A DNA stretch of 35,993 bases from Psammoneis japonica (lineage: Eukaryota). Shown here piece by piece: positions 500-26,643 of this stretch; the first letter of the stretch is position 1; every line of letters starts with the position of its first letter. The notes beneath the pieces were generated by a model that saw only the letters and a list, made by a program, of their open reading frames with translations, was not told the origin of the DNA and did no database searches. The position numbers and the translations under genes were made by a program. The DNA lies in contig QPGO01000282.1 of the NCBI GenBank assembly GCA_008632985.1, positions 38,377-74,369 of the forward strand, given 5' to 3'.

Positions 500-1500
500 T
501 GGCATGGCTGCCAACAATCTGGGCTTGTGCCCTGGTGCTTGTGCTGCTGCTGCTGGCACCAAGAATTTTGTCATGCACCAAAGAGTGCAAACACCTTTGA
601 AACATGCATCAATCTGCACAGCTGCCACTGCGTGCTGGGTTGACCCAAAGTCTGGTCAACCTCACCTGCTGCCAGCCCACAAGGCCATGCACTTTGAGGG
701 CCAGATGAAAATTTTGCTCTTCACCCCAGCCAGTTGGGCTCAAATGGGTTGGGGCTGCTCATGATGCACCTTGCAAGCTTGACAAGAGCAGCACTCTCCT
801 CACTCTCAGCTGCATTCTTCCATGGTGCTCAACAAAAGTCACAGCCCTGCTGCAATCAGAGGGAGTTTTGCTGGAAATTGAATCTGACAAACCTTGCTCA
901 GGTGAACCCAGTCAATCTTCCATGGCTGGAGCTGACATTGCTGCCGAAGTTGGAGCCCTTGTTGACACTTCTTTGGACAAAAGGAGGGAGATGTCCAAAG
1001 TGGTGCGGCGGCACTCCAGAACAGATCGGGGAAGGCAAGGACCCCCAAATGTGGTTGGCTGTCAGAAGATCACACGTCATTTGGGTGGAAGAAACTCTCT
1101 TGACTGTGACACGGAGTCAAGAGCCTCCATCACATCATGGGCAATGGCAAGAATTTCACAGCCAATGTGGAAATGGTGGAACAAGATGTTTGAAGAAGTT
1201 GTGCGAGGCACACGATGCACCCAGTTTCCAAGAGCATCTCTTGACAATTGCCTGGACAGGATGTGCAGTGCAGAAGCTGACATGCCGTTCAAACCAGAGC
1301 AGATGCACTGAGTTGTCTTTGCCTGAAAACTTTGCCTCTGATCCTGTCAGCACACAAACAGTCTCCTCCCCAACAGCACTGACATGGAACTTGAGTGCCT
1401 TCTCTCCATTCCCTCTCTGCTCATGGGGTTTGGTCGATTCCAGCCACTGAACCATCTGTGCAACAACCAGGTTGCTCTCAGGCTTTGCAACCCCACTGGT
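500..1500 (+). mobile_element. Heavily mutated Ty1/copia (CoDi-like) pol relic: protease-adjacent region to start of integrase
   Basis: Frameshifted pieces occur in the expected order: 'GTKNFV', 'TAATACWVDPKSGQPHLLPAHKAMHFEGQM' (cf. CoDi 'TAATAY.DP.TG..YIL..HEALYFG..M'), 'PSQLGSNG', 'LPWLELT', 'GFGRFQPL'. Positions expected to be Tyr read C or H. Recognised from memory; ends are approximate. Confidence 0.55.
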
Positions 1501-1589
1501 TGGAGAGCAGATGTGTGTCATCTCCCCAATGAAATTGCAGTGGGCATGACAGCATTTCCCCAGACCTTGATGGGGAATGAGAGGAGCTC

Positions 1590-3150
1590 GGTCAAATGGG
1601 ACAAAAAGCAACAGCTCAATGCATCCCCAGCACATCTGAGATGGCCAGTTCCTTCCCATTGAGACATGTGGAGTGCCAGTGCAGTGGCAAGGATCCCTTC
1701 ATGCCGTGCCTGGACCAGTCATTCATCCCCAACAACTGCAAATTGTCTCGATGCCTTTGATGCGTTTCTGTTTTGCTGACAAATTTCAAAGCTCTCTGCC
1801 GTCATCCATTTGGGTGAATGACAAAGTGCAGCTGTTCATTGACATTTTGGCATGGGCTGGGCATCTGACCACAGTGATGTCCCCAATCCGGACACCACAT
1901 GTCCAGAGCCTCCTTCTCCAGTGCAAATCTCGTTCTGTGCATGCAAGTCATCACCGCTGCTCTGATGCACTTTATGATTTCCTGCGTTGGGCATTGTGCA
2001 TCTCCAAACCTGTGCACGAGATGTTCCATGCTTGGCATGCCTGAAACAAAGCCACCACCAACCCAGCACAGACACACGCCCTGCAAACGCGCCAGACTTG
2101 CAAATTCCTCCTCCATGCTGAGCAATGCAGAAAAGGCAAGAGCAAAACCAAGGATGTGTGGCCAAGGTGTGCTTTGACATGCAAGGTCACAACCAGCTTT
2201 GCCCACAATTTCTTTGTCAAAACACAAAGGAACAATGGCCGACCTTGATGACACAAACAAGAGTGCACAATGGAAATGTTGCATGAGCCCTGTCTTCGCT
2301 TTTTGTGTGGCAAAACACAGATGGCCACAGCATCATGCAGCACAAACTGCAAGACACCACCACACATGAAAATCAAGAAAATGGGCTGTGACACCTTGAC
2401 GACTCTGCCCATTCTGCAGCAGGTGGTGCAGACCCTGAGTGCAACAGCAAGAAGAATTGCAGTGGCAGAAAAGGCAAAGCCAAGGCCACGCAGCACCCCG
2501 CTCAGGTGGCTGCAATCCACCTGGACCTTTGGCAGAGGCGGAGATGTGTTGGCAGCTCCATCACACAAAATGTGTGGGGTCAAACTGTGCCACGTTCCAT
2601 CTCAAATGATGTCTGCAACAGCATCAAACATGACATTTCCGGTTTCTGGATCTTTTCGTTCCACAAAAATGAGCAGCTGGCAGTGTGCATGGTCAAATCA
2701 AGAATCTCTGTTGTCAGGTCAACGGCAATGGGACCCTTGTTTCCCACAAAGCTTTGCATTGACAGGGTGCTCTCAATGGGAGATGCTGTCAAAGCAAGTG
2801 ACGGGGCACAAGCAGCCAATCCCACAGAGATTGTGGAATCATGCAGAAAGATCCCCAGATCTGGAGACTTGAATGTTCTTTTGACTGGAAGCTGATCTCA
2901 CGTGATGGGATGGCTCTGAAGCTCTTGCATGCTCAAAACCAATGTGTCTGCTTCCACCAGAGCTCACAAGTTCCTGGCATTGCAGTCTGGACAAAAAGGA
3001 TGGAACATCTGGAGCTTGTTCCACGAGCCACTTGCAGGGTGCAGGTCATCTGAGAAAATCCACGCACTGTGATCATCTCCAACGATCCCCGGCAACAGCA
3101 AACCAAGGGCATCAGGTTGTTCAGCCAAGGGAGAGATTCCAGGCCGCAAA
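1590..3150 (-). pseudogene. Class C (7tm_3, GABA-B-like) GPCR pseudogene of the type expanded in diatoms
   Basis: Minus-strand fragments in colinear order: 'WIFSD', 'GLAAC', 'DGAANTSPPLPKVQVDCSHL', TM1 'LRGLGFAFSATAILLAV', 'RVVKVSQPIFLIFMC', 'SAIVPLCFD', 'GCDLACQSTPW..ILGFALAFSALLS', and a possible TM7 end 'LLLFVP' (~1600). Many frameshifts. The part below ~1750 is uncertain. Confidence 0.75.
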
Positions 3151-3200
3151 ACAGCAAGGTGTTGCCCAGGTTTTTACACCATGTTGCTGGAGCACATTTT

Positions 3201-3280
3201 AGAGCGGGAGGGAAGAGAAGAGGAGAAAAAAGGAAGAAAAAGAAAGAAGAGAAAAGAAAAGAGAAAAAAGGAGGGAGAGA
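3201..3280 (+). repeat. Polypurine (A/G) low-complexity tract
   Basis: About 80 nt composed almost entirely of A and G, read directly. Confidence 0.9.
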
Positions 3281-3529
3281 CTCTGTTTTTTCGCCTTGCA
3301 ACAAAGCATTCGAAAAGCATTGTGTTTTGTGGACATCGGCATTGAATTTCAAATGTCCATTTTAGAAGCTCTTTTGCAGGGAGCTTGAGACCATTTCAGA
3401 TGTTTTTAGAAGCGGCTTTGGAGCTCGAAGTTCTGCGCATGTGTGGGCTTGCCAGAAATGCACGTGTGCAATTTGTGCCAATCCACACACACCAGAATTG
3501 AGCAAAAAAGGCCTTCCATCACTTTCCTT

Positions 3530-3652
3530 TCAGCCAATCAGAACCAAACAAAAGCAAGAGATGTTTCCCCTCAGCCAATCAGAAGTCAGCACGTTCATCA
3601 CGTCTGTCATGCGTCAGCCCCGTCAGCGTGAGAATGAGCCTTTGGCCAATGA
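3530..3652 (+). promoter_or_regulatory. Cluster of CCAAT boxes and CGTCA motifs (promoter-like or TE-terminal sequence)
   Basis: TCAGCCAATCAGAA occurs twice (3530-3543, 3571-3584) and GGCCAATGA once (3644-3652), with two CGTCA motifs between. Function is inferred only. Confidence 0.35.
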
Positions 3653-4761
3653 CTCCCTGCATCACTCGTGCCAGTCGTCAAATCTTATTTAGATTCACTC
3701 GCATCTAAAGATGAAGGTTCAACTGATCTCTCTCATCTCGGCCTCCATCTCATCGACAACACTGCATTGTGGCATGCAAGCACAGTTGCGTCTGGCATGT
3801 GATGCGATTTGCCTGAAAATGTCAGGCAACGACAATGTTGTTTGCAATCTTCAGGACCTGACAAATCTGAATGCACAATGCACTGACCAAGCATCTGGCC
3901 GTGGGGAGTTTGGGGCGGGGAGCAGGGGTCAGGAAAATTCGAGAACCTGATGGACGACAGACGTGGTGCTCTCTCTCTCATCAATGCATTGCATCACTCA
4001 TCACTTTCCAAGAAGGAAACAGCAAACCATCACCGTCGTCACATCCTTTGGGTGTTCCTACAAGCCAGAATGTCTCCATTGCCAGAGGACTGAAGTGGAG
4101 GTATGATGCTCATTGCACAACTGATTCAACAATGACAATGGAATTGTGGTGTGTTTTTGTCTGACGAATGACACGTGGCCGATTGACATGTTTTTTTCTC
4201 TCCTTGTTTTCCGTTGTGTGCTGTCGCATTTTCCGAATTGTCCTTGAACCTTGTTCTCCGCAGCATCCTAAAATTTCTTTATGTGCTTACATGCATGCCA
4301 ATGGGATTCCAAGAAAAGCACTTTTGGCGCTTCTTTGCTTCGAAATGTGAGACTGTTGTGGCGTGTGGTGGTGTGTTTGGCCGCCGATGGTGCGAAACAG
4401 CGATCAACATCACCAACAACACAGCATGCTTTTAACAGCCCCACAAACAAACAAAAACAACTGTCTTGGTGCTTCGAACTTTGGTGAAGTCGTCAGGAGC
4501 AAACTCAAAACGAGCAGACTTTAAACACACGCCGTGGTCATGACGATGAAGATTGTAGCGGCTTCCGAGTTTGGATTCGAGATGATACTTGGATCAAACC
4601 CAGCACTGGTTTAAATTGTGTCAAAACCAACTTGCCACTTCGCGGACACGATTCCCTGCACGCAAAAATCTGAATGCGCAAGCACGCACTTTCCCACACA
4701 CTCTTCGTCTCACAATCGCAGTTCTGGCAAGAAAGTAAAGTGTCGCATCAACAATGTCACC

Positions 4762-6005
4762 ATGTTGTACACTTTCCTCTTCTTGAATGCCTTGTTTCTC
4801 ATCGGCAACTATGGCTCAGCCATTTCTTGCCTGCGCAGGGATCCTAAAGAGTTCCTGGTGGGCGCGGTGCTCTGCTTCGTCTTGTGTTGCTTGTTGAGGA
4901 ACATCGACGTCTGGATCGTCGTCCGAACCTTTGTGGTTGCATTTCTCCTCTGGCTCCACACGATCCTTACTGCGGCATTGTCCAAGCAGACAAGGTGGAA
5001 TTGTTCTGAATTTATCCAGCCTCCCCACGTTCCTCGCAGCCACTTTGTGGAGGCGCAATGCAAGACGCATCGTTACGACGTCAATGAGCCATTTGCATCG
5101 TAAGTTTTTGTTGCTCTTGTTGCACTGCCTGTTGTTGTGACGCTTGTTTCTAACGTCACCTTCTTTCTTTGACATTCCATTTCTTGCGTTCAGCTCTGCT
5201 GACAGCACTGGTTCCAACAGTGGAGTGGCTCACGAGCCGTCTTCAAACTACAACCCCCCACCCTCCGTCGATTTTAAAGAAAAAGACAACGTCAAAGCTT
5301 CACCTCCCAAGCCGAGCCTTCCAAAGTGCCACTGCAACGTCAAACCAGAAAAAGACAACGTCCAAGCTTCACCTGTCAAGCCGAGCCCTCCAAAGTGCCA
5401 GTGCAGAGTCGGTGAGAGAGTTTTGCACACGAGTGGCAATGCCAACGACGTCGCTTCTGCCAAGATCATGGCACTCACCGGACGACAAAACTCGCACTAC
5501 ACTGTCCTCTTCTCTAACAACAGAGAGAGGCAGACGGTTGAAAAGAATCTATCGCCCATCCCAAAAACACCAACGTCAGAAAAAGACGACATCGAAGCAT
5601 CGCCTCACAAGCCGAGCCCTCCAAAGCACCAGTGCAAAGTCGGCAAGAACATCAGCACACGAAAGCAATGCCAACGACGTCGCATCTGCCAAGATCATGC
5701 ATTCACCTTGACGACAAAACTCCGCACTACACCATCCTCTTCTCCAACGGCAGAGAGCGACAGACAGAAGAAAAGAATCTATCTCCCGCCCCCAAAAACC
5801 GACGTCCAAGTACGAGAAGGGCCAAGACGTGCATTGCTGCCGCAACAACGCTCGTGTGTTGGCCAAGATTCTCAGGGTGTACTTTGATGATGATCTCGTG
5901 GCGCATTACGACATTAAATGCATGGATGGGAGCGAGAGGCAGACGATTGACAAGCACCTGGAGGAATGTCCGGCTCCCGAGTTGCAGGGAGTGCGACGAG
6001 GCTGA
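4762..6005 (+). pseudogene. Spliced gene: hydrophobic N-terminus plus three copies of a small Tudor/SH3-like repeat; frameshifted and partly TpA-mutated
   Basis: ATG at 4762. A GTAAG...CAG intron at 5100-5193 joins the two ORFs in frame. Repeats: 'CRVGERVLHT..AKIM..HYTVLFSNNRERQTVEKNL', 'CKVG..AKIM..HLDDKTPHYTILFSNGRERQTEEKNL', 'YEKGQDVHCC..AKILRVYFDDDLVAHYDIKCMDGSERQTIDKHL'. TGA at 6003-6005. The fold assignment is inference. Confidence 0.6.
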
Positions 6006-6702
6006 GTTTTTTGCTGTTGCGGGTGAAGAAGATCGTCTGTGATTGTGCATCTTATTTTTCATTCAGGCCTGCATTGTCGTGAAGACGTGTTGGGCAGAAA
6101 TTGTTTCAGATGTCAGCTTGTGGTGCGCATTCACTTGTCATTTTGGTGCTCGAGTTCAACTGCAGCAGCAAAGTTGGAAGAGGCTTTCCAGATCTCGCAT
6201 TCAGGCACGCATTGTCAAGACGACACATGTGAGTTGGCCGCCGTTTCGGAACTGGTTTTGTGTGCCGGCAGAAGAGAATGCAAGATCCAGTTCGCCTCTG
6301 AAAGCTAATGTTGAACAGCAGCAACACTTGTTCCAATGTTCAAGTCGAAAACCATTGCAGGACTGGCGGAATCGAATGAGAAAACGAGAAACAAACATTA
6401 GACGGGCTTTTTGCGTGCAAGGTAGAAGCTCACGGATTGTCAGGTTTAGTGTGGCGGGCATGGGGCATGGGAGTGGGGCTGGGGCTGGGGCTCGAGAGGG
6501 ACCAGTTAGCGTGCTGTAGAGCATTAGGCCTGCAGATCAAGATTGTGAAAACAAAACAAAAATTAGAAAACGCGTTGTCAGAACATCTCTTTTGCACTTT
6601 TGAAAACTCGCTTTCACATCGTCCTGCTTGCAATCATCCGCTGTCAGTGCAAGTGAGGTAACCAAGACTGTCATTGAGTGCAAGGTTGTTGGTTGAGAGC
6701 GT

Positions 6703-7364
6703 CTGCTTTGTCCAAAGATTGCCGCACAGGTTGCGACCATCAGCATTGAGCATCTCATGTACCGCACGAATCCACCAGGCCCGCTTCTGGCTTGGTCGGC
6801 AATCTCAAGGGCGGTCTCCACCAGAATGTCAAGGATCTTCGCATCGTCAAGGACCCAACAAAGGATAAAAAGTATCCCAAGTAGCTCGGGGCCGGTTGCA
6901 GATCATTTTGTGCCGAGGAGGGTGCGTCCGTGAAGGTGTTGCTTGAATCGGAACGGGCAATTCTGCACATCTCATTCGACACTTTGCCCACGCTTGTCCA
7001 TTGTCGCCTTGTGCTGATGCCATTAACGACACAGCCACACACTGCTTTGTTCAAAGATTGCCACATGCCGCAGGTTGCGACCATCAGCACGAAGCATCTC
7101 CTGTGCCGCACAAATCCACCAGGCCCGTTTCAGGCTTGAACGGCAATCTCAAGGGCGGCCTCTACCAGAATGTCAGGAACTTCATGTCGTCAAGGACCCG
7201 ACAAAGGATAAAAAGTGTCCCAAGCATCTCGCGTTCGGTTGCAAATCACTTGGTGCTGAGGAGGACGGGTCCGTGGAGGTGTTGCTTGCATCGGCCGGGT
7301 GACACTGCACACTTCACTGATGCTTTGCCGATGCCTGTCCATTGGCGCCTTGTGCTGATGCCAT
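6703..7364 (+). repeat. Diverged direct duplication, ~320-340 bp x2 (6703-7024 and 7043-7364)
   Basis: Alignable by eye through shared blocks such as caggttgcgaccatcagca, aatccaccaggcccg, acaaaggataaaaagt and cgccttgtgctgatgccat. Confidence 0.9.
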
Positions 7365-7382
7365 GGACGATGCAGGCCATGC

Positions 7383-7786
7383 CTCAGAACAGCAAGCGCT
7401 TCTACGCTGAACTGTGTGCACGAGAAGAGCATTTTGCGGAAGGCACATCCTTCATGATGTTGGGACTCGGCGCTTCGAGTTGTCATTTCTTCTGCAAGGC
7501 CGCCATGGATGTGGAGGACAGGATGTTGGAGTTGGGAAAAAAACTGGCGACGGTTCGGCGGAAGATGCAGGCTGTGCTTCAGAACGGCAAGCGCTTCTAC
7601 GCTGCACTGTGTGCATGAGAAGCGCCTTTTGCGAAAGGCGCATCCTTCATGATGTTGGGACTCGGCGATTCGAGTCATTGTTTCTCTTAAAGGCCGCCAA
7701 AGATGTGGAGGACAAGATGTTAGATTTGGGCGCAAAAAAGCCTGCTTCCCACGGGAACTGGCGACGATTCGGCGGAAGAGGGCAGG
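7383..7786 (+). repeat. Diverged direct duplication, ~190-210 bp x2, of the flavodoxin segment
   Basis: Shared blocks gcaagcgcttctacgctg, catccttcatgatgttgggactcggcg and gatgtggaggaca at ~7392-7520 and ~7587-7715. Confidence 0.9.
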
Positions 7787-8610
7787 AAGAAGGACTTGCG
7801 AGTGGCTTGACGGCGTCTGGCCCACACTTGATGTCCCCCCCAAGAGTTCCCGCACGTTGCGCCGGTCAAGGTTGGGTTTTGGCTTTGTCCAATTCTGCTT
7901 GCAACAAAGGACCAACAGGACGAGAACCAATGCTTTACATCCGAAAAGATGTGCCCCGAGGACTGTGGCCGAGACTTCCGTAACATCAAGTTCGACAAGG
8001 ACGTTGACTAGAAGTCGGCGATCCGCTCGACATCTTCCCTCTGCTCAGCGGACTATGACGAACGTGCCGTCGTCAACATTCACGCTTGGGAAATGGATGG
8101 AGACGTTTCTCTCGTCTGTCTCTTTGCCAGTGCTCTTGATCTGTTCGGAAGCCAAGCACTCACTTCATGCAGCAGTTTGCAACCTTTGAGACCGATCCAG
8201 AACAACGCAAGACAATGTTGGATCCGAGCTTTTTTGCTAGAAAGAAGCAAAGGCTAACGGCAACAGGTGCGGGTGCAATTTCACTGCTTCGATTCGAGAC
8301 GGCGCGTCCTCCTCTGCCAACCCTTCTCGCGATGATTCCATTGAACAAACCGCATGCCTGCTCTGTTGCCAGTTCGCCATCCGCTGGCAAGGATTGCATC
8401 AAGCTCTGCATGTTGATCGACACTTGGTGCGCGGACGGCATGATTTGTCCAAAAAACAAAACCAACGTGATAGAAAGGATCGCAGATGACGATCGCAGTT
8501 CTAGCTTGGTTTTGAGACAGCGGTGGGACGACGGCGAAGCGTCATCGCCAGACCGCCAGATTCAAATCTGCTTCGCCACTGGCTGGCTGGAGGGTGGAGT
8601 GGCACTGCAC

Positions 8611-8842
8611 TGTTCCAACGCTTTCACTTCGACTCATTGTGTGGCTAAATGTTTCGATTCAATGATTAAAATTTCAAAAGATGCCGACGAAACATCAAAA
8701 GTGCCTGAAAATTTCAAAAGATGCCGGAGTTCAACGCACACACCTGTTCCAACGCTTTCACTGCGACTCATTGTATGGCTAAATATTTCGATTCAAGAAG
8801 ATGCCGACAAAACATCAAAAGAGTGCCTGAATAGAAAATTTC
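8611..8842 (+). repeat. Direct repeat, ~100 bp x2 (8611-8715 and 8745-8842)
   Basis: Both copies begin tgttccaacgctttcact and contain agatgccgac.aaacatcaaaag. Confidence 0.9.
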
Positions 8843-9170
8843 GAAATCCGCCGTACACACGCTGTATGTCTGTCTGTCTGTCTGTCTGTACATAAACGTA
8901 AACAGAAAGCACAAAAACCCAAACGCCAAAGCAGTGAAAGGATGCGAGAATGCGATGCGGGATGCGGCGGAAGCGGAAGGAGCTTGTGCGTGAAGTAGAG
9001 TATCCAAGAGCAAAAAAGGGTTGATGCGAGTGTGCTAGTAGTCTAATAGCAACCTCCTTATTACCTTTAGAACTACACCAGTGATCTTGTTGACCCATAT
9101 CGATTGTTCTTCATTCTGATTGGGTTCAAATTTGTGAAAAAATCCCGCATCCAACGAAAGATACAGAAGA

Positions 9171-13764: not shown

Positions 13765-13836
13765 TACGGGGAATTCAACGCAATTCTCGGTATGGTATGC
13801 CACGGGGAATTCTACGTAATTCTCAGTATGGTATGT
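13765..13836 (+). repeat. 36-bp tandem repeat x2 at the left edge of the TpA-free block
   Basis: tacggggaattcaacgcaattctcggtatggtatgc (13765-13800) followed by cacggggaattctacgtaattctcagtatggtatgt (13801-13836). Confidence 0.9.
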
Positions 13837-14680
13837 GACGGCATGATGTCGTCATCATGATGTCATGACGCCATGCAGAAGTAAGTGCACCAGGGCCCTA
13901 ACTAACTGTGCCGTACAGCCAAAATTCTACCCAAGAAGTGTCATGCACGCATTGTGTTGAAATGCTTTTTCAGTTCTTCTCTTTGCATTGCCCTTTTGTT
14001 GCTCTGGCTCATGTTCATTTTGTCCCAAGCAACATTTTGTCATTGCAGAGCAACAGTTTTTGCAGTGCACAGCAACGGCCAAAAAACGGGCAGCTTCATT
14101 TTCGTCAGAGCAACATTTTCCATTTGGCGCAAAAACATTTTCATCTCTCCGCTTTTGCTGTCCCTCCTTGTTTCTCCCCATGTGATTTTTGCATGGGTTC
14201 GATGCCCATGTCAATGATTTGCTGTGATCCTGTCTGTCTTCACGTGTTTTTCTGTGTGTCGTGTCCTTTGCGGGGGATCAGCTCAACACAGAAAGCTCCC
14301 AGCTCAAAGATCCGTTGATGAATTTGTCAAATTGGCTCACAAAAATTGATGCTCTTGTTCACCCTGCATGATGGTGCACCTGATCAGGAGTTCAACCATC
14401 CACTGAATCCCCGCCGGTTGTTTTTCAGCACAGTGGTCTCCCCCCTGTTTGGCACCTCCTTCCTCCGCAGCACACCATGGTGAGCTCTGCTCCTCTCCAT
14501 CATCTTCGTTGACATGGGTCTGTGACAACAGAGTCTGGTTGTCCTTGGAAGAAGGGTGCAAGCTGCAGATGGTCTGTGAGCGATGGAAAAAAAAACTGTT
14601 GCTTCCAAAAGCACAACTTTTCCCTCCACCCATCCATCTGATTTGGAGCGGCTTGATGGTTTTGTTGTGGCAACTTTCAG

Positions 14681-16900
14681 ATGTTCATCAACCCCATGTC
14701 TGCTCATGCAATCAAGCACTGCAGAAGCAGGGTCCACTCTGGCAAGTCCTTGGAGGATCTCAACACTGAGCTTGAAGCAGACAAGAAGCCTTGGAGACTT
14801 TGTGCTTCTCCCAGGTTTGCTTTCTCTGTTTTCCCAGCTGCTGAGGAGAATTGTGAGATGTGGTGCAAGAAGTTGTGGTGCTTTTTTTCAATGGTTGGCA
14901 ATTGTGACTCCATGGTCATGCTGTTGCCTCACCCACCAGCTGGCTCAAAGTGCAAAACTGTTGCGCACCGCCCCCTTCAGCATTTTGCGGTGCATTGCTG
15001 CCAGGCCTTCAATCAACCATTGAAGTCTTCCTTTGTTGACTCTGTTGCCTCTGACCCTGTTTTGGACATCCACGGCAACAACATCAGATGTGAAGGTTGC
15101 ATCAACAATGCCAAGGGATTTGCCAACATTTGTGCCACCTTGACAAATTCTTGGTGGCAAGCTTGGGACAAATGGCAGCTGCAGAGAGCAGCGTCAAGAC
15201 TGTTTGCAGTTGCTTCATGTGCAAGGGTTGCATTTTGCACCAGTTCATGCCACAATGTTGGAGCACAGGTCTTCCCACAATGACCACACAGCACAAAGAC
15301 CTTGTGAGGTGGGTTGAGCAACAAAACACAGCCAGCGGCTGTCAACCAAAGTCAAAGTCGCCTTTGTTTCCTTCAGACCTTTGGGACATTCATGCCTGCA
15401 TGATTTCCAAAACTGCACCTGGTGGGCTCAATGATTTTGCCAGGTGCACTCAGGTGTTGGCTGCCATCCATGTTGCAGCCAGGTTTGATGGTTGCCAAGA
15501 CATTCATGTGGTGGAAGACTTTGGTTTGTTGCACAAAGACTGGATGATTGAAGAAGCTCCCTTTTTCATTGCCAACATTGCTTTGAGAGTGAAGGAAAAG
15601 ACAGATGGTGACTGGCTTCACTGCATGATCAAGTTCAAGGATGAGACTCCCCAGCTCTGTTTCCTCAGGCATTTGTTGGTGCACGTTCATGTGCCAGGTG
15701 CAAAGGAAGGCTGCATCTTTCCCTCTTCTGCAGACTTGGCAGCACTGTCCATGGCGCTGGCGCGTTGACTCTCAGTCTGAATGCAATCCTGTGTGCCCTG
15801 TTCCTGCCACGTGTGTGTCCATCTCTCGCTGGCTTGTGGAGAGACTTGAGGAAAACTGCAAAAGAGGTGACAAAGCTGATGTTGGCTGCCGCTCTCTCAG
15901 GCACACCTTTTGCACGTTTTCAGTTCTTGGAGGGTGGGAGGAGAGGACATTGAACAAAAGGAGTGCGTGCCACAGGGATTGGGAAACCTCTGAGAAGCAC
16001 ATGAAGAATTGCACAAGCGCTGCAGAGGACATGATGAAAGATCCTGTTCCAAGGAAAAGGAGCAAGATCTGGAAATTCCAAGATGTGAAAATTGAAAGAA
16101 GAGCACAAAGCAGGAGCAGGCTCAACAGCATGATGCCTCGCTCATGTTTCAAAGCACTTTGTTGAATGAGGTGCTTCTTGTGATGCCAGATGACCCAAAC
16201 TGCAAGAACCCCCGGCAACTTTTGCAAAAGAGCAGCTGCTCCATGACCTTGGCCAGTCACTCTTTGGATGAACAATTGCACAGCTCTTCTGCAGCAATTG
16301 GTTGTCTGACATGCACCCTGCTGTGTGGAGCTTCAAAACTTGGTGCACAGCATGGTTGAAAAATTGTCTCATCCAGTTTGTTCTTCAATGTGGGCTGCTC
16401 CATTTGCAGCCATGCTGGGCACAATTTCTCCACAGATTCCACTTGTTGGTCACTCTGTTGCTCCACCTCTTGCCAATTTTTTGCTGAGTCTCCAGCCCTC
16501 TTTTGTTCCCACCCAACTGTTTGCACATGTTGCCACCAACAACACAGACCGCTGTTTTTTTCTCTGTGACTTGGGGAGTGCTTGTGGGCTGGACAAGGAG
16601 AAGGTGGCCAAGTTCAAGAATCTTGGCTTCCACAAACAGGCCATGCAGCTTGAGGCTCTTGCAATGGACATTGTGCAGGTGGGGTCATCTAACCCAGCCA
16701 AGAGGCCACAAACTGTGGACACTGATTTGTTTGTCAGGGCGCACAAGATGGGAAGGAAGAAGCTGTTGTCTGATCCCAAAACCAGAAGCTGGCTCAGCCA
16801 CAACCATTTGAGATTTTTCAACTGTTTTGTTTGGTGCCACCACCTTTCCATTGAAAGCCTCATCGGATCGCACACCTGTGCCACAGGCAGCAAGTTTCAT
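14681..16900 (+). pseudogene. Crypton-type (CryptonS-like) tyrosine recombinase, inactivated
   Basis: N-terminal 'LWCFFSMVGNCDSMVMLLPHPP...PVLDIHGNNIRCEG' and 'GCILHQFMP..STGLP...SPLFPSDL'. Catalytic-domain motifs in order: 'AARFD' (R, 15481), 'VKEKTD' (K), 'LCFLRHLLV', 'GCIFP', 'GCRSLRHTF' (HxxR box), 'SACH...SEKHM' (H...Y box, Tyr position = CAC 15998-16000). Several frameshifts. Confidence 0.82.
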
Positions 16901-17240
16901 CATGACTCATGCAACGCCAGGTCTCAATCATCTGCACCACAATCTGTGTTGCTGGCCCAGATGCTGCAGTTTTTTCCTTGACCTTTGGCCAAAATCTGTG
17001 CTTTCCATTCAACCATCTTAGCCCTCAAATGCTGCACACATCATTTCTTTGGCACAGCGGATGAGCAGTTGTTGCTTTGATGCAGCCCCTTTTCCCACTG
17101 ACATTGTTGTTGGTGTTTTCGTGGCCGCCACACTGGCAGAGAAGAAAAGGGATGTGCAAGTGCAAAGTTTTCTTGAGATGGACATTGGTGACTCCATTGG
17201 CTCCCAGGTGAGCCATGGCAAGAACCATGGAAGGGCATTG

Positions 17241-17890
17241 GAAGACCATTCTTGTGTCAACTCAGCCACTTGTGGCTCTTAGATTGTGCAGGATTCAGCC
17301 ACGAATGCCCAGCTGTTGAACAATGGGAAGTGCTTTTGGAACAGTGCAGCTGCAAAGTTGCACTGTGATGGAATTGGGTGACTGCCTTGGGTCCAGGGGA
17401 AGTCAGCAAAAACCACCAGCGGGCAAGGGAAGAACATTCTTGTGCAGACGTGACCAGTTGTTGCTCTGAGATTGCAGAACTCAGAGCTGACAACCCTGGT
17501 TTTGAATGGCAGGAAGTGATTGTGCAGCAGGGCAGCTGCAAAGTTGAACATTGGCAGATCCATTGTGTTGCTGGGGAGTCAGCAAGAAGCATGGGCAGGC
17601 ATTGGAAGACCATTCTTGTGCCAACACAGCTGCGTGTCACTCTGAGATTGCAGGATTCACCCAAGACAACCTGGCTGTCAAACCATGGGATGTGAGTTTG
17701 GAGCTGTGCAAGTGCAAAGTTGTCTTTTGATGGACTTGGGTGACTGATCAGAGTCCCAGGGGAGCTGGCAACACAACCACCAATGGGTGCTGGAAGACCA
17801 TTTTTGTGCAACCACAGCTGCTTGTTGCTCTGAGATTGCAGGGTTCAGCACAGACAACCCAGCTGTTGAATGGTGGGACAACTTGCTTTT
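17241..17890. repeat. Four diverged tandem units of ~175-190 bp (probable relic of a repeat protein)
   Basis: The anchor gaaga(c/a)catt(c/t)ttgtg...ctct(g/t)agattg recurs at ~17241, 17430, 17605 and 17793. Confidence 0.85.
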
Positions 17891-18783
17891 GGAAAAGGGA
17901 AAGCAAAGAGTCAATTTGTGATGGATGTGGGCATCTCTGCTGAGTCTCCAGGGGGGGGGGGGGTGGCAACAAGCATGGAGGGAAGCTGAGTGACCATTGC
18001 GGCAACTGTCTCATTTTCTGAGTGACTCTGTCACATTGGTCCCTTGCAGAAAGTGCGAGCCAACAGCTTGCCAGTGACAGTCATGGGTCAAGGCATTGAA
18101 ATGACATGAAGGTGCCCACACAATTGCAGATGTGGACAATGAAAGGGAGACAGACAATGAGTGGGAGGCAGACATGAATGATCATTGGCAGAAAAGGCAA
18201 GAAAAATGTGCAACTCTGCACGGACGCATGAACTGCAGAAACAAACATCAACAAATGAAGATGACATTAAATTTGTGTGCCCAATTGTGGGAAAGCAACT
18301 GTTGCCTGTGAGCCCTTGTCATTGCAGTCATCATGGGAACTCTCTGTGCAGTCTTTGCCATGACAAACAAAGCCCACACAAACTTGCATCAATTCCATGT
18401 TTCTTGCACTTTTCAGGTGATCATTGAGGCTTTCCAGGTGCTCCGACGCTGACTCTGCAATGGAGAACTTGGGGTGAACTTCCTCTCCACCAGAGTGCAC
18501 GACAGAGAGGTGATGCACAAACAACATTTCTTTCTTGTCTCCCAGCAAGTCATCCTCAGAAATCTCCTCATTGTCACTTTTCAGAGTGCCACAAAGAACC
18601 CCCATTGGGTGCAGGAGCCTTTCCTCCACCACGAGGCCAAATCTGTCAACCCACAGACCCTTTTCATCAAAAAGGGTCTCATCAAATTTGCAACAACTGC
18701 TGCATCTCTGTTTGTCTCAACTGTCTGCTGAGAATTTTTGGCCAAACATGTTGCGCTGATTGACTCGAACAATTTGTCAACAT

Positions 18784-19203
18784 GCAGCATGCATGCAGAC
18801 AAAAGGTCATTTTGTCACGCCCTTTGTGACATTCAAAGGCTGCAACACGTCGCCGTGGTGCACCAACTCTTGTCAGCAGCTGTGTGTTGCACTCCTCCCC
18901 ATGCATCACGCGTCCATGCGGCTCTTTGCCAACGTGTGCTGACACTGCACGGTTTTGGCGGAACAGTGTGGGCACGTGCGAAGGAACACATCGACAGTGA
19001 TCAATGTTGCTGCAGACAACTCCCACTCAGGGTTTCGAACCCCTGGCCTCCTGCCCAATGGTCACACGATGAACCACTCCGCTGTGAATTCACAACGCAG
19101 CATGCATGCAGACAAAAGGTCATTTTGTCACGCCCTTTGTGACATTTAAAGGCTGCGACACGTCGCCGTGATGCGTTGGCTCTTGTCAGCAGCTGCACGT
19201 TGC
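18784..19203. repeat. Direct repeat, ~107 bp x2 (18784-18890 and 19097-19203)
   Basis: gcagcatgcatgcagacaaaaggtcattttgtcacgccctttgtgacatt is identical in both copies; the remainder differs by transitions. Confidence 0.92.
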
Positions 19204-22200
19204 AAACAACCCAATTGCAGTTTTCCAAGCACCCCAGATTTGCTTGCAACACTTCGTTCCAGAGGTGCTCACCAAAACTGCCTTTTGTGGAGACAAACAT
19301 GTTTGCAGCTGCAAGACTGAAATGTTCCAGCACAAAATTGGGCCCTTTGGAAAATGGCTTGTTGGCTTTTGCACCAAGGGTGACTTCCAGGTTGTCTGTC
19401 ACCCCTTTGAACCCTTCAAGAACCATCTTGCAGTGACGCCATTGAGGGGGGGAGTCTCTCACAGGACCCAAGCATTGCATGGTCAGCGAATTGTCAAAAG
19501 GCAGCCTGCAAACAATGGAGGAGTTGAAGGCCACATGTTTGGAGCAGTGCTCTGGAAATTCATGCAACCCAACAAACAGCTTTTCAAGAATGGCTTCAGG
19601 GTCATCTTCCAGCTCCTTCTTCATCTGGGCTTCCATTTGAAGGATTTTCCCACCTGGCACGCTTCTTCAATGGCAAATTTTGTTCACAGTTGCCCAGCAG
19701 AACAGAGAGAACACAGTGCTGCAACACAATTGTTGCCTCGCTGTGTGGTTGGAGTCAGTCTTGAACCAGTTTGGGCTGGGATGAATTGAGTTGTCACTCG
19801 CCTTCTTTTGGAGAGATGCAGTGCATGCCAAGGCACTGACTCAGCGCCCCAAAACAAAGTCATTGTTGCAACAAAAAGTGGCAGTCAAACAGCTGAAAAA
19901 AATGAAGGCAGTGGACAACAAAACTTGCGAGTTTTTGCCTTCCAGCAACTGCCAAGAGGTGGGCAAGTGGGGGCACTGGAGGGCCATGCTCAGCTTCCAG
20001 CTGCACATGCCCAACTCCTTGAACCTGAGTGAGGAGCTTGCTCCTCGTGTGCTGGACAAGGACTTGTTAAAAAAAAAAAAAGCTGCTTGAGAGGACAGCC
20101 TGTTTTCCATTTCCATGATTGAGAAATGAGAGATGAGACCCAAGCACTGCCACTTGAAGATTGCTGGTGTGTCTGCTCTTTTTGGGAGACACTCATTGCT
20201 GGTGGAAGGAGAGGATCCAGTCCACAGTTGACACAGCAGGATGATGTGTTCCAGTTTGAGAAATTCATGCAGTCAAGTCATTGCAAGGAATCATGGAAAG
20301 GAAAGTTCAGGTTCATCCCTTCTTCTTTCCTGACTCCCTTCCACAGATTCAGGAGGCTGTTCATCAACAATGATCTTCAGCTTGTTCAGGCAAATGCAAA
20401 CAAGGAGTGCAATTTTTTCAAGGGCACAACCAACCATGGCAGAGAGACCTGCATCATGCAACAGGACAAGTCATGGAGGACAAGCACCCATGGTCATGTG
20501 GACCACATCCCCACATGTGATGCCAGTTGCCACATTGACCATTCAAGCATCAGCGCAAATCAACCATGACAGCTTGTGCATGTTGACAAAGCACCTGCTT
20601 GCATTTTCAGGGTTGCAGGGGAGGATGTGGCCAGAGAGGTGAAGCATGGTGGGGAGAAATTCACAGAGATTTGCAAGAATGCAGAGATCAAGGAGATTCA
20701 GAACCTTGGTTTGAGGTGCCAGATGACCAAGAACCGCGGCTGATGGAGCAACACAAGGCAAGAGATTTGGAGAGGCAAGTCAAGAAACAAGGAAAGCTGA
20801 AATTTGATGAAATGTTGAGTGCTGCTGTGGCGATGCAGCATGTGGTGGGAACAACCATGAAGGAGGGAAAGGAGATGCAGTGAAAATGTGGGGTCAACAA
20901 AGAAGTCAAGTGGTCAGCCCATGCAAAAGTTGGAGATTCTGGCAAGGGAGACAAGTGGGTTGAACCAGCAGAGAGAGTGAAGAGGAGCAGGCACAACTTG
21001 CAAACAGCGGCAAGCAGAGGAGGAGGAGGAGGAGGAGGCTTTGGTTGATTCAACTGAAAAGCTTGCAGCAAGCGACAATGCAGAAGAGGTGGCAGAAGCA
21101 GTTGAAAAGGTGGCTGGGTCCAAAAAAAGTGAGCCAATGCAAAAGCAGAACAGCCAGAAGTCCAGCCACAAAAGTGCAGCCAACAGAAGGAAAAGAGCAA
21201 GAAGAAATTGAACAAAGACAATGACCGAATCACTCAAACAGATTTGTGATCCTGCAAATTGGTTGTGAGCAAAACCCAAGAGAGGAAAAAAGAAACCGGC
21301 GGTCTGTGCTGCAAAGCTTGGAGCAAAGCAACCATGTCAGCCAATGGAAGCATGTTTGTGGTGCTGACAAATTGAGTCCCAAAGGGCCCAGATGCTTGTG
21401 CCATGGCAACAAAGTCAGTTAGAAGGGGGGTGCCACCAGGAACAAAGCCACCTCCACACTCAAACTTGAGCATGAAATCAAAGGAGATCTGGGCAGTGGC
21501 AGAGCAAACTGAATCCATGCAGAGTTGCAGTCTTCCTTGAAAGTGAGGCACAAGCCCCCACAATCTGCGTCCAACATGCCCACCCTGGGAAAAGAAGCAA
21601 GAGCTTTAAACAAAACTTGAGTGGCTTGTTGGGGCAGGCACAAGCTGCCAAGAATCAGCTCAATCTTTTTGCAGAGGGGGTCCACAAGTGACAAATTTTG
21701 AAACCCTCTTAAACACCTCCACAGAGAACATTTCTGTGAAGGGATCACTGGGGGGGATCACTGGGGGGGCATGAACAGGAGATTCAAACACCAACAGCAG
21801 CTGCTCTTGAGGGTCTCTCTGCTGCTGTCCTCCTCTGAGGCATTCTGTCTGCCACAAACAAGTTGGTGGAGGCCAGGTGCAGGACCAAATCTCAAAGGAT
21901 GCACAGAACAACAATTGGAAGAGTCTCCAGAGGTGAAGGCACAATTGACAAGCAGGGTCATCAAACACAGCTGTGGTGGATGGTGCTTCTTGTCCTCAGA
22001 GTGTGGTGCAACAAGTCTGTTTTGGAGCAAAGTGTGCACTGGGGCCACAACTCAACATTTTCTTCATGACACATGTCACATCTGCTTTGCATTGTTGATC
22101 AGCACTGCTTCCACAGCTGCACATTCAAAGGAAATTTTGTAAAAAACAACCACATGCTGCCATGGAAACTTGCGCAAAAATGCGCTGGGGCAGCCCAGGC

Positions 22201-22470
22201 ATTGGAGCTCTGTGTGTGGCCATCTCAACACATGAAAAAGTTGTTGCAAATGTCTTGCAGCATGAGAGCTTTTGTTGCCAGTTCAAAAGAGTTCTCTTTG
22301 TGCAAGACAAGAAAAAAATTCCAATTTGTTGCATCACAGGCTCCCAGTCACCAGTCAACAGCCGCACACAAACAAGCAGAGAAGATTTTGTTGGCACTTT
22401 TTTGCTCATGAGAAGCCAAACCAAAAACTTCACTCCAAAGACAAGAGCGGCCCTTCACATTCTGGGGCAA

Positions 22471-25128
22471 TTGAGAAAGAAAGAGCAGCTGCTTGTTTTG
22501 ATGTGCTCCAGTGTTGGGGAGCTTGTTTTTGTGTCAAAGCATTTGCAAATGCACAAAGACACTGTTCTCTGCTCAACAAAGCCGTTGCACATCAGTGCAA
22601 AAATCACAGTCCATGCAGCAGCTGCCACTCCCAACTGGGAGGTCTGCAAGTGGCACAGAAGAAGGAAAGAGAAGAACTCCCATGGATTGCAACACACTGC
22701 TGTGCTGCACCAGGCCAGCCAGCAAAGCTCAAAAAATTTGTGCCGTGTGTTTTTTTTTTTGTTCCTGGCACAAAACCAAAAAATTCTGCACAGAATTTGT
22801 GCAGCCACCATGGCAAATTTGCATCGCATGAACCGTCATTGTCACCATTTTTCACAAGGCAAGTCACTCAGGATGTTGTTGGCATTTGTCCACAGCGCCA
22901 CTGCACACTGGCACAATTTTGACAAGTGTCGCTCCGTGTGCAAGAATGAGGATTTTAACTCCTTTGGTGTGTGAGCATGCTGCTGTTGTTGCCGTTCCGG
23001 TGTGTTTTGTCAAGTTTGTTGTCACTTCCCTTCTCTCATCCCTTGACCTGTGCATGGCTCATTTCACAATGAATGTGGATGAAAGGCGCTGATGTGTGGG
23101 AGACACCTTTGGAGTGTTTGAGGCAAGCTCTGGACGTTGCGGCTCATGGCTCATGTGTTTTCAATGGATGAAGGGCCCCACACTTTACTTTGTCAAACAT
23201 GTTGATGGTGCAAGCAGCAGTGGATTTCATTCAGATTGTTCTTTTTGCTCTTGTCCTTCCCAAGCTGCAACAACTGGAAAAGAAACATGCCGGGCAATGG
23301 CTGCCATTTGGTGTCCTTGATGTTCTGTGGCAGAGCACTGTGTTGAGCACCGAGCATCCTTGCCACATTGTCGCCATGGGCAAGTGCCATCATGGATCCA
23401 GCGAGATCACACCATCCATGTCACCCCCCATTGAGCCACTGCTTCCCAATGACGGAATGTCCATGGCAAGCCTTGGGGTGCTGACATTGTTCAATGTGCA
23501 ACATTTGCAAACCATCAAGTTCCAAGCATTGCAGCTCTTCATGCAATGTCTGTGTTTCTCTTTTGACCAGCGCATGTGTCATGTCACTGGGTGCTGGCTT
23601 TTGCAAATGACAACATCTCTGTGCATTTCACTCAGTCATTTTTTCTTTTTCTTGCGGTCGCTGTCCTTGGGTTGGCAACTGCATTGGCAAATGCAATCAC
23701 CAAATCTTTTTTCTCTTTTTAAAATGTCTGCTGTCAGAACTGACCATTCTGGTCAGGGCCTTCTTGTGTGTTCGAGTGTTGCTGAATGCTCTTGAACAAG
23801 AAATGTCAGAAAGAAACGGAGGGATTGGGGCCATTCTGAACACCACCACCTTGGACGTCATCAACTCTGGCACATCATCTTGTCCATGCCACTCATGGTG
23901 TTGTGTGGGGTTTTGCTGTGTGCTTTCTCACTGCTGCTGTGGTGGAATTGGCCACTGCTTTTTCAAATTTGCTTGCAGCTCTGATGGTCAGTCTGCATGG
24001 TGGTCTGCCTTGTGGTTTTGCTGGCAAGAACACTGTCACTTGATTTCAAGAAGATTGGTGGCAGAAAGATCACCCCTGTGGGACCTGTTCAGACAAAGCC
24101 AAAGAGTCTTTTTGCTGTCTTTTCATGTGTCTTTTTTAAGACTGGGCTCAGCTCTTTGCTTGTTTTGTCATCTTTCAGACCTCCTTTTGACTTCAATCCT
24201 GCTGTGTCAACTTGTGCCAAGTTTTCTGAACCACCACACTTCACATTGGTGTCAAGAGAGCAAAAGCTCTGAAAGAGACCTTTCTTGTTTCTTCTTCCAT
24301 GTTGTTTTGGATTGGTGGTGAGTGGGCATGTGGCGCTGAATGAACATCAAAAGCATGAAGCAACAAACCTCTTGGTGGGAGCAAACAGGAGACACCTTTT
24401 TGTGGGACTGGGGTGGAGGGCAGATGTTTTGCACCAGGCCAGCATGCAATTTGTGCAAGGCACGCAGAAATCACACAGAAATCTGTCTGTGCACCAGCTA
24501 AAATGTGTTGCGGTCCACGGGAGTGGGTGGCAGCTGCACTCTCAAAAGAACGAGCGGTGCTCTTCATCTTGCCCCTCATGTCATTGATGAGGAAGGTCAC
24601 TCAAGTCAGCCAAAATTGACGCTGTGGAGCAGTTGAAAAAGAAAGAGCAGCTGCTTGTTTTGACATGCTCCAGTGGTGGGGAGCTTGTTTTTTGTCAAAG
24701 CATTTGCAAGTGCGCGAAGACACTGTTCTCCACTGAGCAAAGCAACTCCACATTGGTGCAAAAATCATGGTCCATGTGGTGACAGCCACCTCCTCTCAAA
24801 AGAAAGAGTGGCTCTCATGACCTCACCACTCATGTTTTTGATGAGGGAGGTCACTTGAGTTGGCTGCAGTTGATGCTCTTGTCAGGCATTTGAGAAAAAA
24901 AGCAGCTGCTTGTTTTGACATGCTCCAGTGGTGAGGAGCTTGTTTTTGGGTCAAAACATTTGCAAACACACAAAGACAATGTTCTCTGCTCAACAAAGCA
25001 GTTGCACATTGGCGCGACAACAACGGTCCATGCAGTGACAGCCACACTCTCAAAAGAAAGAGCGCGGCTCTTCACCTCAGCCCTCATGTTGCTGATGAGG
25101 AAGGTCGCTCAAGCTGGCCAAAGTTGAC
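22471..25128. repeat. ~260-bp repeat family: partial copy 22471-22620, partial copy ~24511-24620, full copies ~24633-24864 and ~24890-25128
   Basis: Shared blocks agcagctgcttgttttga, gagcttgttttt, catttgcaa, ctctcaaaagaa and tgatgagg.aggtc. Confidence 0.88.
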
Positions 25129-26643
25129 AGTGCCCCCCCCCCCCCCCCGAGCATGTTGCTGCCAACACACAGCAGCAAGCAGTGGTTGCACAATGTGGTG
25201 GCTCTTTTCAAAAGATGCAGCTGTTCAGAGAGGCAGCTCAAGCCAGGCCAGAGATGCTGCATGGGTGCACATCAGCTCTGTCTGTCAGTGGAAAAAGATT
25301 TTGGCAGAGGCCCAATCTTTGCAAATGTTGTTCGCACTTTCATCTTTGGCAAGGCCACAGCTTGAGAACCTGGAAGAGGCACCCAGAGAAACAGACATGC
25401 TGGTTGGCGCCCACCACCGTGTGGGTGCTTTGTTGGATGTTGTGCAGCCGCAGACCACCGTGCTCACTCCAAGAAGAAGCAAAGCTGGCTTTGAGCTGCT
25501 TGCCACAATGAGAGCTCCTGGCCAGTGTGACATCCTGCTGCCACCCACTTTGGGCCAAAAGAAGAGTTTTGATGGCACCGACATGAGGTGTGCCGATGGC
25601 ACGCATGGCCCAGCTTTGGACCTGCAGGGACAAATGCCCTCCATTTCTGATGCTGAGCACAAAAACATGAAAAGGCAATCTGCAAAAATGCCAGTGCTTG
25701 CCTTCCTGCTGGTCGACCATGAGAGTGCTCCCGCTGGCTTGCCAACCCAAGATCCTGCCGCGCGCGCTGGCATGTCCTTCGCGCATGTGGCAGCACCGCT
25801 CCACCTGGCAAAAACAGCCACAAGGCAACAAGGGCTGAAATCTTAAGCCAGGTTGATGCCAGCACAAAAAAAAACAAAAGTGCGCACATCTGAATGAGCA
25901 TAGCTGCACTGGGGGGCCGGAGACAATTTGAAAGGCTGAAGCTCGCCTGGCAAGGGGGGCCAGGGGCCAAGGAGCAGAGTCGCGCGGCCCGCAGCTGTGC
26001 CAACAAGGGCCGGCACAATGCCAGAGAAAGAATGCTCCAAAGTTTGGTTGAAGTGCAGCATGCAAATGTGAGTCCTTTCAGCACACGTGCAAGACTGCAA
26101 CAAAGAAACAGTGCCAGCCTGAAGCTGTGCTCTTTTGACGATTGATGGCTGCTGGTTTGGCTGGACCGCGAATGTGAGAAACCCCGCACCTGCAATGATG
26201 TGCTGGCCCGACTGCTGCTGTGAACCTGGGTTGGCAGTTTTCCACTGGGCCCCAATTTTCTTTGCCCAGCACTGCTTCTTCCTCTCTCAACTCGACAGCA
26301 TTGTGCTGCGCACCCTCACAACAAGCAGCCGTTCACATTGTGCGTGACTCAGTCATCACGGGCGCGAGTTTCGGTTGCCAACGCGAACATCAAAAAATAC
26401 AGCATCTTGTTCCATAACTATTTATGCCCCTAAACACTCGACAGTTCAAGACACAAGTGCAATTAACCACAAGATAGATTACTAAATAGGACAATGCCTT
26501 TTCGACAGTATAATACGTCTTGTCCACGAATGTCTTTAAGTATTCTCCAGAGAACGGATGAGGGGGAAAAAAGAATCGATACTTTCGCATTCTCGTTTTG
26601 CCTCACACAAAATTAATCGGTTTATCTTTCGACAACGGTTACC

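Follow-up and report, generated by a model that had tools for sequence, protein, structure and literature searches.

Which process can strip a stretch of nuclear DNA of nearly every TpA dinucleotide, and what decides which of these sites remain? The question is raised by a 35,993-nt stretch of contig QPGO01000282.1 (hereafter the window; eukaryotic nuclear DNA, ~49% G+C), in which one long block is almost free of TpA and most of the exceptions read TTAA. We find that the block and its remaining sites are likely to be explained by a mutator confined to certain regions, which turns TpA into TpG or CpA at a rate set on each strand by a flanking base. Ordinary parts of the window carry 15-38 TpA per 500 bases (observed/expected, o/e, 0.63-0.69; CpG o/e ~1), as compared with 0-2 in positions 1-3000 and 14001-26000 and 4-9 in ~3000-8500. 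Three domains, none of them assigned to a strand, can accordingly be delimited:

13931..26397, main TpA-depleted domain, CpG-poor and CpA/TpG-rich (12,467 bp, 17 TpA)
1..3000, second saturated domain, truncated by the window start (1 TpA, the TTAT at 1972-1975)
3001..8700, partly mutated domain, the replicate for the context rule (68 TpA, ~1/4 of expectation; CpG almost intact)

In the main domain, 17 TpA are left as compared with ~570 expected, with o/e values of 0.02 for TpA, 0.23 for CpG, 1.79 for CpA and 1.71 for TpG; across both saturated domains the ranges are 0.01-0.02, 0.20-0.23, 1.73-1.79 and 1.71-1.98, respectively. The initial annotation had placed the block at 16689..25903. The depletion it reported is real and its extent is larger, finer windows showing that TpA is absent from 13931-16689 and becomes dense at 26398, and both edges (13931 and 26397) are sharp to within a few tens of bases, with normal TpA on both sides.

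Transitional loss of TpA in place

The dinucleotides that disappeared can be balanced against those that accumulated. Relative to normal window DNA, the main and first domains together changed by -44.6 TA and -39.1 CG per kb (sum 83.7) and by +80.0 CA+TG, and the partly mutated domain by -33.9 TA, -1.2 CG and +33.5 CA+TG. Because the loss of TA and CG is matched by the gain of CA+TG, with no other losses, drift in GC content is excluded. The initial annotation had preferred an enzyme-like fingerprint to such drift; the dismissal of drift stands, and the enzyme-like part is an interpretation. The two losses are also separable, since 3001-8700 has kept its CpG (o/e 0.7-1.05 from 4500 on) while losing ~3/4 of its TpA, whereas the saturated domains lost both; TpA hypermutation can therefore precede CpG decay or extend beyond it.

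Repeats reveal the same changes as they occurred in place. Five pairs of tandem copies in depleted DNA (two of them sharing a copy) show 9, 8, 3, 4 and 2 double differences of CA versus TG, as compared with 0 among 50 substitutions in a repeat of the normal domain, so that pyrimidine-purine steps must have been resolved independently after local duplication. The repeat at 22.8-23.1 kb has further copies in the genome, and at positions that are CA or TG in the window these retain TA 3 times and CG 5 times. The loss of TpA is thus transition-only, regionally limited, active in place after duplication and, as described in the next section, dependent on context.

The changes can be followed in the remains of genes that lie in mutated DNA:

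14657..16280, + strand, putative tyrosine-recombinase (Crypton-like) gene remnant (three reading frames; homologue alignment)
23611..24318, + strand, DHHC palmitoyltransferase pseudogene (KRNYRYF to KCNHQIF; DHHC motif lost)
6947..8892, + strand, decayed diflavin-reductase gene of flavodoxin and FAD-binding pieces (tandem duplicated segments; conserved SSY to SSC)

For the frame at 15094-15765 there are 138 homologues, 700-1000 residues long, which map colinearly onto 14657-16280 in three frames. Over 468 aligned columns (135 homologues), tyrosine accounts for 4.0% of the residues in the homologues and for none in the window. Tyr makes up at least 40% of 9 columns; in the window, 6 of them are a TGT or TGC cysteine codon, 2 a CAC histidine codon and 1 a TTC phenylalanine codon, and Cys or His occupies 8/9 of these columns as compared with 38/417 non-Tyr columns (p = 8.6e-8). 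Other family-invariant residues with an aligned residue were retained at 9 of the 11 positions checked (R, K, D and H being mostly kept). In the remnant Y318, Y407 and Y501 became Cys, Y529 became His, H494 became Arg and R519 became Cys, the last by a CpG change.

The residues conserved in the family (R363, K399, H494, R497, H520 and Y529) form an R, K, HxxR, H, Y series, which we take to be the R-K-HxxR-H/W-Y pattern of tyrosine recombinases, and the Y529 column (15998), now His, is probably that of the catalytic nucleophile. The nearest protein-atlas clusters carry the domains NDC10_II, GCR1_C and Phage_integrase; no Pfam model reached threshold in 12 homologues, and a single weak Phage_integrase match (E 0.057) was noted. 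From these residues and clusters, a Crypton-type tyrosine recombinase is a lead to the family's identity. As far as the part of the Crypton literature compared here extends (Kojima and Jurka 2011, PMC3212892), the likeness lies in a family of 700-1000 aa with recombinase-like residues, and the difference in the absence of a Pfam match at threshold.

In the DHHC pseudogene, the changes of the conserved motif are R to C, Y to H and R to Q; a Pfam search of 138 stop-to-stop frames of depleted DNA returned nothing beyond one weak DHHC match. The main block is silenced and pseudogenised, a mosaic in which the recombinase remnant lies among dead genes of cellular type, tandem repeats and a high-copy repeat. 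Coding segments of the diflavin-reductase gene are duplicated in tandem (6703-7029/7042-7370 and 7365-7565/7560-7779, 80-83% alike), a pattern that suggests local amplification before or during decay.

Recombinase-related loci from metagenomes have ordinary TpA in 4/4 cases (o/e 0.56-0.63), and 3/4 are CpG-poor. These loci are short and were found with a 6-sequence homologue alignment, a 27-sequence alignment being too diverse. Judging from these relatives, CpG decay appears to be common in this transposon family and the loss of TpA special to the window's copy. Scanning the metagenomes with the mutated recombinase frame gave no match, and the 6-sequence alignment scan gave no second TpA-depleted example. 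The CpG-depleted elements, on contigs L002, L003 and L004, have CpG o/e values of 0.02-0.16 and normal TpA.

A similar composition might arise from error-prone repair synthesis, in which a polymerase eta-type WA-motif error would be recruited to a heavily methylated domain by patch repair of deaminated 5-methylcytosine. In WA motifs, polymerase eta tends to insert the wrong base opposite T, most of all at TA, and CpG decay and TpA loss do coincide in the saturated domains. Comparison with this polymerase, which the initial annotation had proposed, nonetheless disfavours it: TpA was lost from 3001-8700 where CpG is almost untouched, ApA is not depleted in mutated DNA, and the changes are transitions, both in the mass balance and at the Tyr columns (8 to Cys or His, 1 to Phe). 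We therefore consider repair error an unlikely source of the depletion, even though it fares best among the alternatives to a TpA mutator.

Context of the remaining TpA and a per-strand rate rule

All 17 TpA reported for the main block by the initial annotation are found at the positions and in the tetramers it had given, each coordinate being that of the base before the T. The sites, to which no strand applies, are supported by sequence count except where a copy is noted:

18267..18270, surviving TTAA
19146..19149, surviving TTAA (the copy at 18784-18891 has TCAA here)
20067..20070, surviving TTAA
21606..21609, surviving TTAA
21709..21712, surviving TTAA
22955..22958, surviving TTAA
23719..23722, surviving TTAA
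24136..24139, surviving TTAA
25843..25846, surviving TTAA
16689..16692, surviving CTAA
24498..24501, surviving CTAA
17018..17021, surviving TTAG
17279..17282, TTAG, probably re-created (three tandem copies have TGAG here)
21419..21422, surviving TTAG
22139..22142, surviving GTAA
23185..23188, surviving TTAC
25900..25903, surviving ATAG

The tally is therefore TTAA 9, TTAG 3, CTAA 2 and one each of GTAA, TTAC and ATAG. TTAA makes up 9/17 of the sites as compared with 27/679 in normal window DNA (odds ratio 27, p = 1.7e-8), and TTAA together with CTAA/TTAG 14/17 as compared with 85/679 (p = 2.8e-10). From the flanks of all pyrimidine-purine steps within the block, 7.0% TTAA would be expected (binomial p = 5.8e-7). 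The claim that the survivors in 1-3710 are all TTA or TAA also proved correct, the 8 TpA there being TTAT twice, TTAC, TTAG four times and CTAA.

The partly mutated domain replicates this skew. TTAA and CTAA/TTAG account for 26/68 of its TpA as compared with 85/679 in normal DNA (p = 4.7e-7), and ATAT and ATAC/GTAT for 3/68 as compared with 182/679 (p = 5.9e-6). Survival of each NTAN class in 3001-8700, relative to normal DNA, was:

CTAA/TTAG, 0.81
TTAA, 0.77
GTAA/TTAC, 0.33
CTAG, 0.33
CTAC/GTAG, 0.27
GTAC, 0.25
ATAG/CTAT, 0.19
ATAA/TTAT, 0.17
ATAC/GTAT, 0.07
ATAT, 0

The fastest sites are those with A at -2 / T at +1, ATAT leaving 0 survivors and ATAC/GTAT 3 as compared with ~44 expected.

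A simple model accounts for these counts. Each TpA presents two target adenines, one per strand; a single flanking base sets the rate of each, the two rates add, and sites decay exponentially. With 5 parameters (four rates and a dose ratio) for 20 counts (10 NTAN classes in two domains), this additive per-strand model fits both domains (deviance 15.0 on 15 degrees of freedom, p = 0.45). A single context-free rate is rejected whether normal DNA serves as ancestor (likelihood-ratio chi2 87, p = 9e-19) or the domains' own flank composition does (chi2 53, p = 2e-11), so that NTAN survival in the window is not uniform after normalisation. With the normal-DNA proxy, the fitted rates are 0.15 : 0.50 : 0.92 : 1.39, that is 1:3.3:6.1:9.1, and saturated DNA received ~3.5x the dose of partly mutated DNA; a rate spread of ~5-9 fold suffices to leave almost nothing other than TTAA at saturation.

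These results support the proposal, made in the initial annotation, of a mutator that acts per strand, is hindered by a flanking base and finds TTAA shielded on both strands, TTAA being slow on both. The simpler description of survivors as "TTA or TAA" holds in part: TTAA is slow, but TTA or TAA alone gives no protection, as ATAA/TTAT contributes 0/17 sites in the main block, 1/18 in both depleted domains and 6/68 in the middle domain. This class survives poorly because its other strand is fast. The context effect reaches one base further out, since T/A outer flanks occur on 21/34 sides of TTAA in mutated DNA as compared with 16/54 in normal DNA (p = 0.004).

Owing to strand symmetry, the survivors fit equally well a rule in which the neighbour on the 3' side of the adenine decides (T>C>G>A) and one in which the neighbour on the 5' side of the T does (A>G>C>T). 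At an asymmetric site, however, one version predicts TG and the other CA, and wherever the ancestral state can be compared the product indicates the direction:

Tyr columns with at least 40% Tyr, 5 for the 3' version, 0 against
Tyr columns with 20-40% Tyr, 4 for, 0 against
flavodoxin SSY, 1 for, 0 against
tandem copies, 4 for, 1 against
DHHC NY, 0 for, 1 against
other genomic copies, 0 for, 3 against

In total 14/19 tests favour the 3' version, with a likelihood ratio over the -2-base version of ~10^5.5 (~10^3.9 without four less secure columns). Products of TAA to TGA change are under-represented as well (ATGA vs TTGT, odds ratio 0.69, p = 0.012; GTGA vs TTGC, 0.65, p = 0.007), with the same trend in the partly mutated domain, in an analysis of product tetramers on which CpG decay and the composition of the ancestor have a confounding effect. 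On balance, it is probably the 3' neighbour of the target adenine that decides, in the order T>C>G>A.

Several points weigh against this account of the block and its context rule. The basis is one window, which offers 17 sites in the main block, 18 when the second depleted domain is included and 68 in the replicate. Two proxies stood in for the NTAN composition of the ancestor, and the second gives rates of 1:2.1:3.4:4.8, so that the ratios differ between proxies; in 3001-8700, CTAA/TTAG was seen 18 times as compared with 11.6 fitted. As to the flank, 5/19 direction tests oppose the 3' version (sign test p = 0.064), most of the supporting cases are Tyr codons, in which the 3' side is always C or T, and 4/6 product-tetramer comparisons were not significant. 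Finally, where the site at 17280 has TTAG, three tandem copies have TGAG, so that a new G-to-T change is its probable origin; re-creation thus contributes, and "survivor" is not literally true of all sites.

This last case leads to the possibility that the remaining TpA are newly created, by back-mutation or by slippage in T-runs and A-runs, in which event their context would reflect making rather than destruction. The initial annotation had itself raised this alternative, and part of it holds: 17280 looks re-created, and junctions of at least 3 T and at least 3 A are enriched (6/86 sites in mutated DNA as compared with 5/679 in normal DNA). Two of the remaining TpA, 17280 and 19147, have copies inside the window, and the second, a TTAA that faces TCAA, is ambiguous. 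The skew, however, does not follow from substitution. Re-creation by single substitutions (three transition:transversion weights; indels not covered) predicts 5.8-6.9% TTAA and ~18% TTAA plus CTAA/TTAG, and 53% and 82% are seen (p <= 5.3e-7). The same rank order holds in 3001-8700, where 3/4 of the TpA are gone but most of those remaining must be old. Re-creation alone cannot yield the skew, which even at steady state reflects context-dependent removal, and as the general origin of these sites it is improbable.

Selection could instead have retained TpA as functional signals, such as stop codons, splice acceptors (TTTTAG), branch points or poly(A) signals. A TAA or TAG can be read on one strand at all 17 sites, and several TTAG lie in pyrimidine-rich, acceptor-like contexts. 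Such constraint is very unlikely in genes that no longer function: Tyr codons are absent, the recombinase lies in three frames and its likely catalytic Tyr has become His, and the DHHC motif is lost. Selection would have kept the Tyr codons first, and the additive two-strand model fits all ten classes without a functional term.

A proposed deaminase mechanism and comparable systems

The mechanism that we propose is a region-restricted mutator that would drive TpA to TpG or CpA almost to saturation in silenced DNA. Its target would be an adenine preceded by T, changed from A to G on either strand, with ordinary CpG decay superimposed. The base 3' of the adenine would most likely set the per-strand rate (T ~9, C ~6, G ~3, A 1); palindromic TTAA, which presents TAA on both strands, would decay slowest, TTAG/CTAA would come next, and ATAT and ATAC/GTAT would vanish first. 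By inference, DNA would here be the substrate of a polynucleotide adenine deaminase of the TadA/ADAT2 type, and the process may be the one seen live in Bigelowiella natans.

In that alga, TpA-restricted hypermutation of integrated viral DNA was recently reported (Mettrop et al., April 2026, bioRxiv 10.64898/2026.01.13.699255; the statements here refer to its main text). Mutation-accumulation lines placed 231/302 new single-nucleotide mutations in two integrated viral regions; 230/231 of these were A-to-G or T-to-C, all on TpA, which also speaks against a polymerase eta-type error as the source of such scars. A present-day mutation rate measured at ~1000-fold above background characterises this type of hypermutation, the genome contains 124 TpA-poor, CpA+TpG-rich clusters, and an ADAT2-like deaminase was proposed (10.64898/2026.01.13.699255). 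The main text gives no flanking rule and does not contain the words "TTAA", "context", "flanking", "trinucleotide", "CpG" or "diatom". Our literature search for TpA hypermutation in diatoms or elsewhere found no other report, and the flanking-base rule was not found in print.

The window resembles the B. natans regions, as described in that text, in having transitions of TpA to TpG or CpA alone (here in the mass balance, the Tyr columns and other genomic copies), in being delimited, TpA-poor and CpA+TpG-rich, and in affecting degraded genes, in part possibly mobile or foreign. It differs in that the neighbouring host gene is diatom-like rather than chlorarachniophyte; that depletion is near total (o/e 0.02, as compared with 0.45 in the giant-virus insert of B. 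natans); and that CpG decay accompanies the saturated parts, cellular-type pseudogenes are included and a flanking rule was derived. As to a preference for foreign or mobile DNA, the mutated recombinase-transposon remnant and one mutated high-copy repeat speak for it, and the DHHC and diflavin-reductase pseudogenes, which are also mutated, and the unmutated high-copy repeat at 10502-11835 speak against it. By analogy, the same kind of process apparently operates in a second lineage.

Repeat-induced point mutation (RIP) of ascomycete fungi offers a parallel, as it too is a hypermutation by transitions at one dinucleotide, limited to regions, that inactivates mobile DNA and marks its composition. 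RIP, however, makes TpA from CpA and so enriches TpA, while here TpA becomes CpA or TpG; the RIP signature of C-to-T change at CpA with raised TpA is absent from the main block, where TpA is at o/e 0.02 and CpA and TpG are in excess. The two may also differ in their dependence on duplication, as here a high-copy repeat (10502-11835) keeps normal TpA.

The natural target of TadA/ADAT enzymes is A34, which follows U33. The target adenine of the window likewise follows T, and its fast contexts are TAT and TAC; the comparison with TadA/ADAT preferences that the initial annotation had suggested thus gives agreement for the fitted order T>C>G>A (an adenine after U or T, with a 3' pyrimidine), while the choice of the 3' flank rests on the 14/19 direction tests. 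The difference is one of substrate, as TadA and ADAT2-ADAT3 act on tRNA loops or on single strands exposed by Cas9. In the part of the report used here, a TadA-8e variant is described as editing within YAC (PMC13109818).

ADAR-like editing of double-stranded transcripts, fixed through reverse transcription by a retroelement, would also change A to I (read as G), and ADARs share the preference for a 5' U. Their optimum is given as 5'-UAG-3' in the relevant part of PMC11334849, whereas here a 3' G has the second lowest rate and a 3' T the highest, and TTAG/CTAA are among the best survivors. The substrate, moreover, behaves as DNA in place: tandem copies diverged through independent TG or CA choices, and instead of a single retroelement the block contains what is left of a DNA transposon, together with cellular-type pseudogenes and repeats. 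There is accordingly little to recommend an RNA-based route over a mutator of DNA.

More speculatively, the scar might reflect a chromatin-directed DNA adenine deaminase defence, a mirror image of fungal RIP, common to distant lineages of the stramenopile-alveolate-Rhizaria (SAR) group (a chlorarachniophyte and a diatom-like stramenopile), with a T-A-Y preference inherited from tRNA-anticodon deaminases; we regard this as possible and hold it tentatively. Were it true, TA-free DNA with TTAA alone would be a general scar marking silenced invaders in protist genomes.

The first report of TpA-specific hypermutation of invading DNA is only months old and concerns a single alga, with a deaminase proposed as the enzyme. 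A scar at saturation beside genes whose closest named relatives are diatom genes implies that the process may be widespread in marine protists. The quantitative rule (slow TAA, fast TAT and TAC, additive over strands) allows candidate deaminases to be tested on oligonucleotides, and it speaks for a preference like that of TadA/ADAT rather than the UAG preference of ADARs. For annotators, the absence of TA except in TTAA would be a signature of old silenced DNA.

Surroundings of the depleted block

The genes of the window include a Pin1-type gene (WW and rotamase) at 11841-12527 and pieces of leucine-rich repeat (LRR), lipase and MFAP1 genes. Of the 120 matches listed for the Pin1-type protein, none of them near-identical, 8 carry an organism name, 6 of these being diatoms and the other 2 truncated names, and from these relatives the source genome is treated as that of a diatom-like stramenopile.

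Logan contigs of sequencing run X1, which is possibly the sample of origin, agree with the block without a single difference over seven listed stretches and span its left edge (12874-14010), a match that rules out an assembly slip and not a sample artefact. Since, in addition, the genes carry frame breaks and the tandem copies carry different resolutions, a sequencing or assembly artefact such as miscalled base modifications is scarcely credible. Among the sequencing runs listed for this sequence none is an RNA run, and run X2 has no cover over 13.8-22.5 kb, which we do not read as evidence on expression.

Two segments of the window are high-copy repeats, 18506-19172 within the TpA-free block and 10502-11835 with normal TpA; as the latter keeps its TpA, copy number alone is no trigger of the mutator. 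The summed contig depth in run X1 is ~47,000 at 18506-19172, 2,000-6,700 at 10502-11835 and 30-60 elsewhere.

No framing terminal repeats, inverted or direct, were found around the main block, and self-comparison after collapse to purines and pyrimidines found no unmutated twin of it inside the window. No homologues were found for the frame at 19004-19666. Just left of the block, at 13763-13878, two 36-bp tandem units (89% alike) are followed by an imperfect palindrome rich in CATGATG/CATCATG, possibly an element end or a boundary element. Within the main block, a G13 tract (17951-17963) and a C16 tract (25133-25148) are mutually inverted, 7.2 kb apart.

Right of the block, an open frame at 27152-28918 (+ strand) has 589 codons and 64 cysteines, arranged in repeated GACC...C...C...CP modules with Pro/Thr-rich linkers between them; it has no Pfam match, and no homologue was found in a word-based search, nor for the frame when delimited as 586 aa at 27161-28921. 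In the LRR gene, contigs of both runs X1 and X2 join across 137 bases at 9964-10102. An intron is the less likely reading of this joint, as it occurs also in the DNA-like run X1 and coincides with one tandem LRR-coding unit; more probably, alleles of this gene differ here in copy number.

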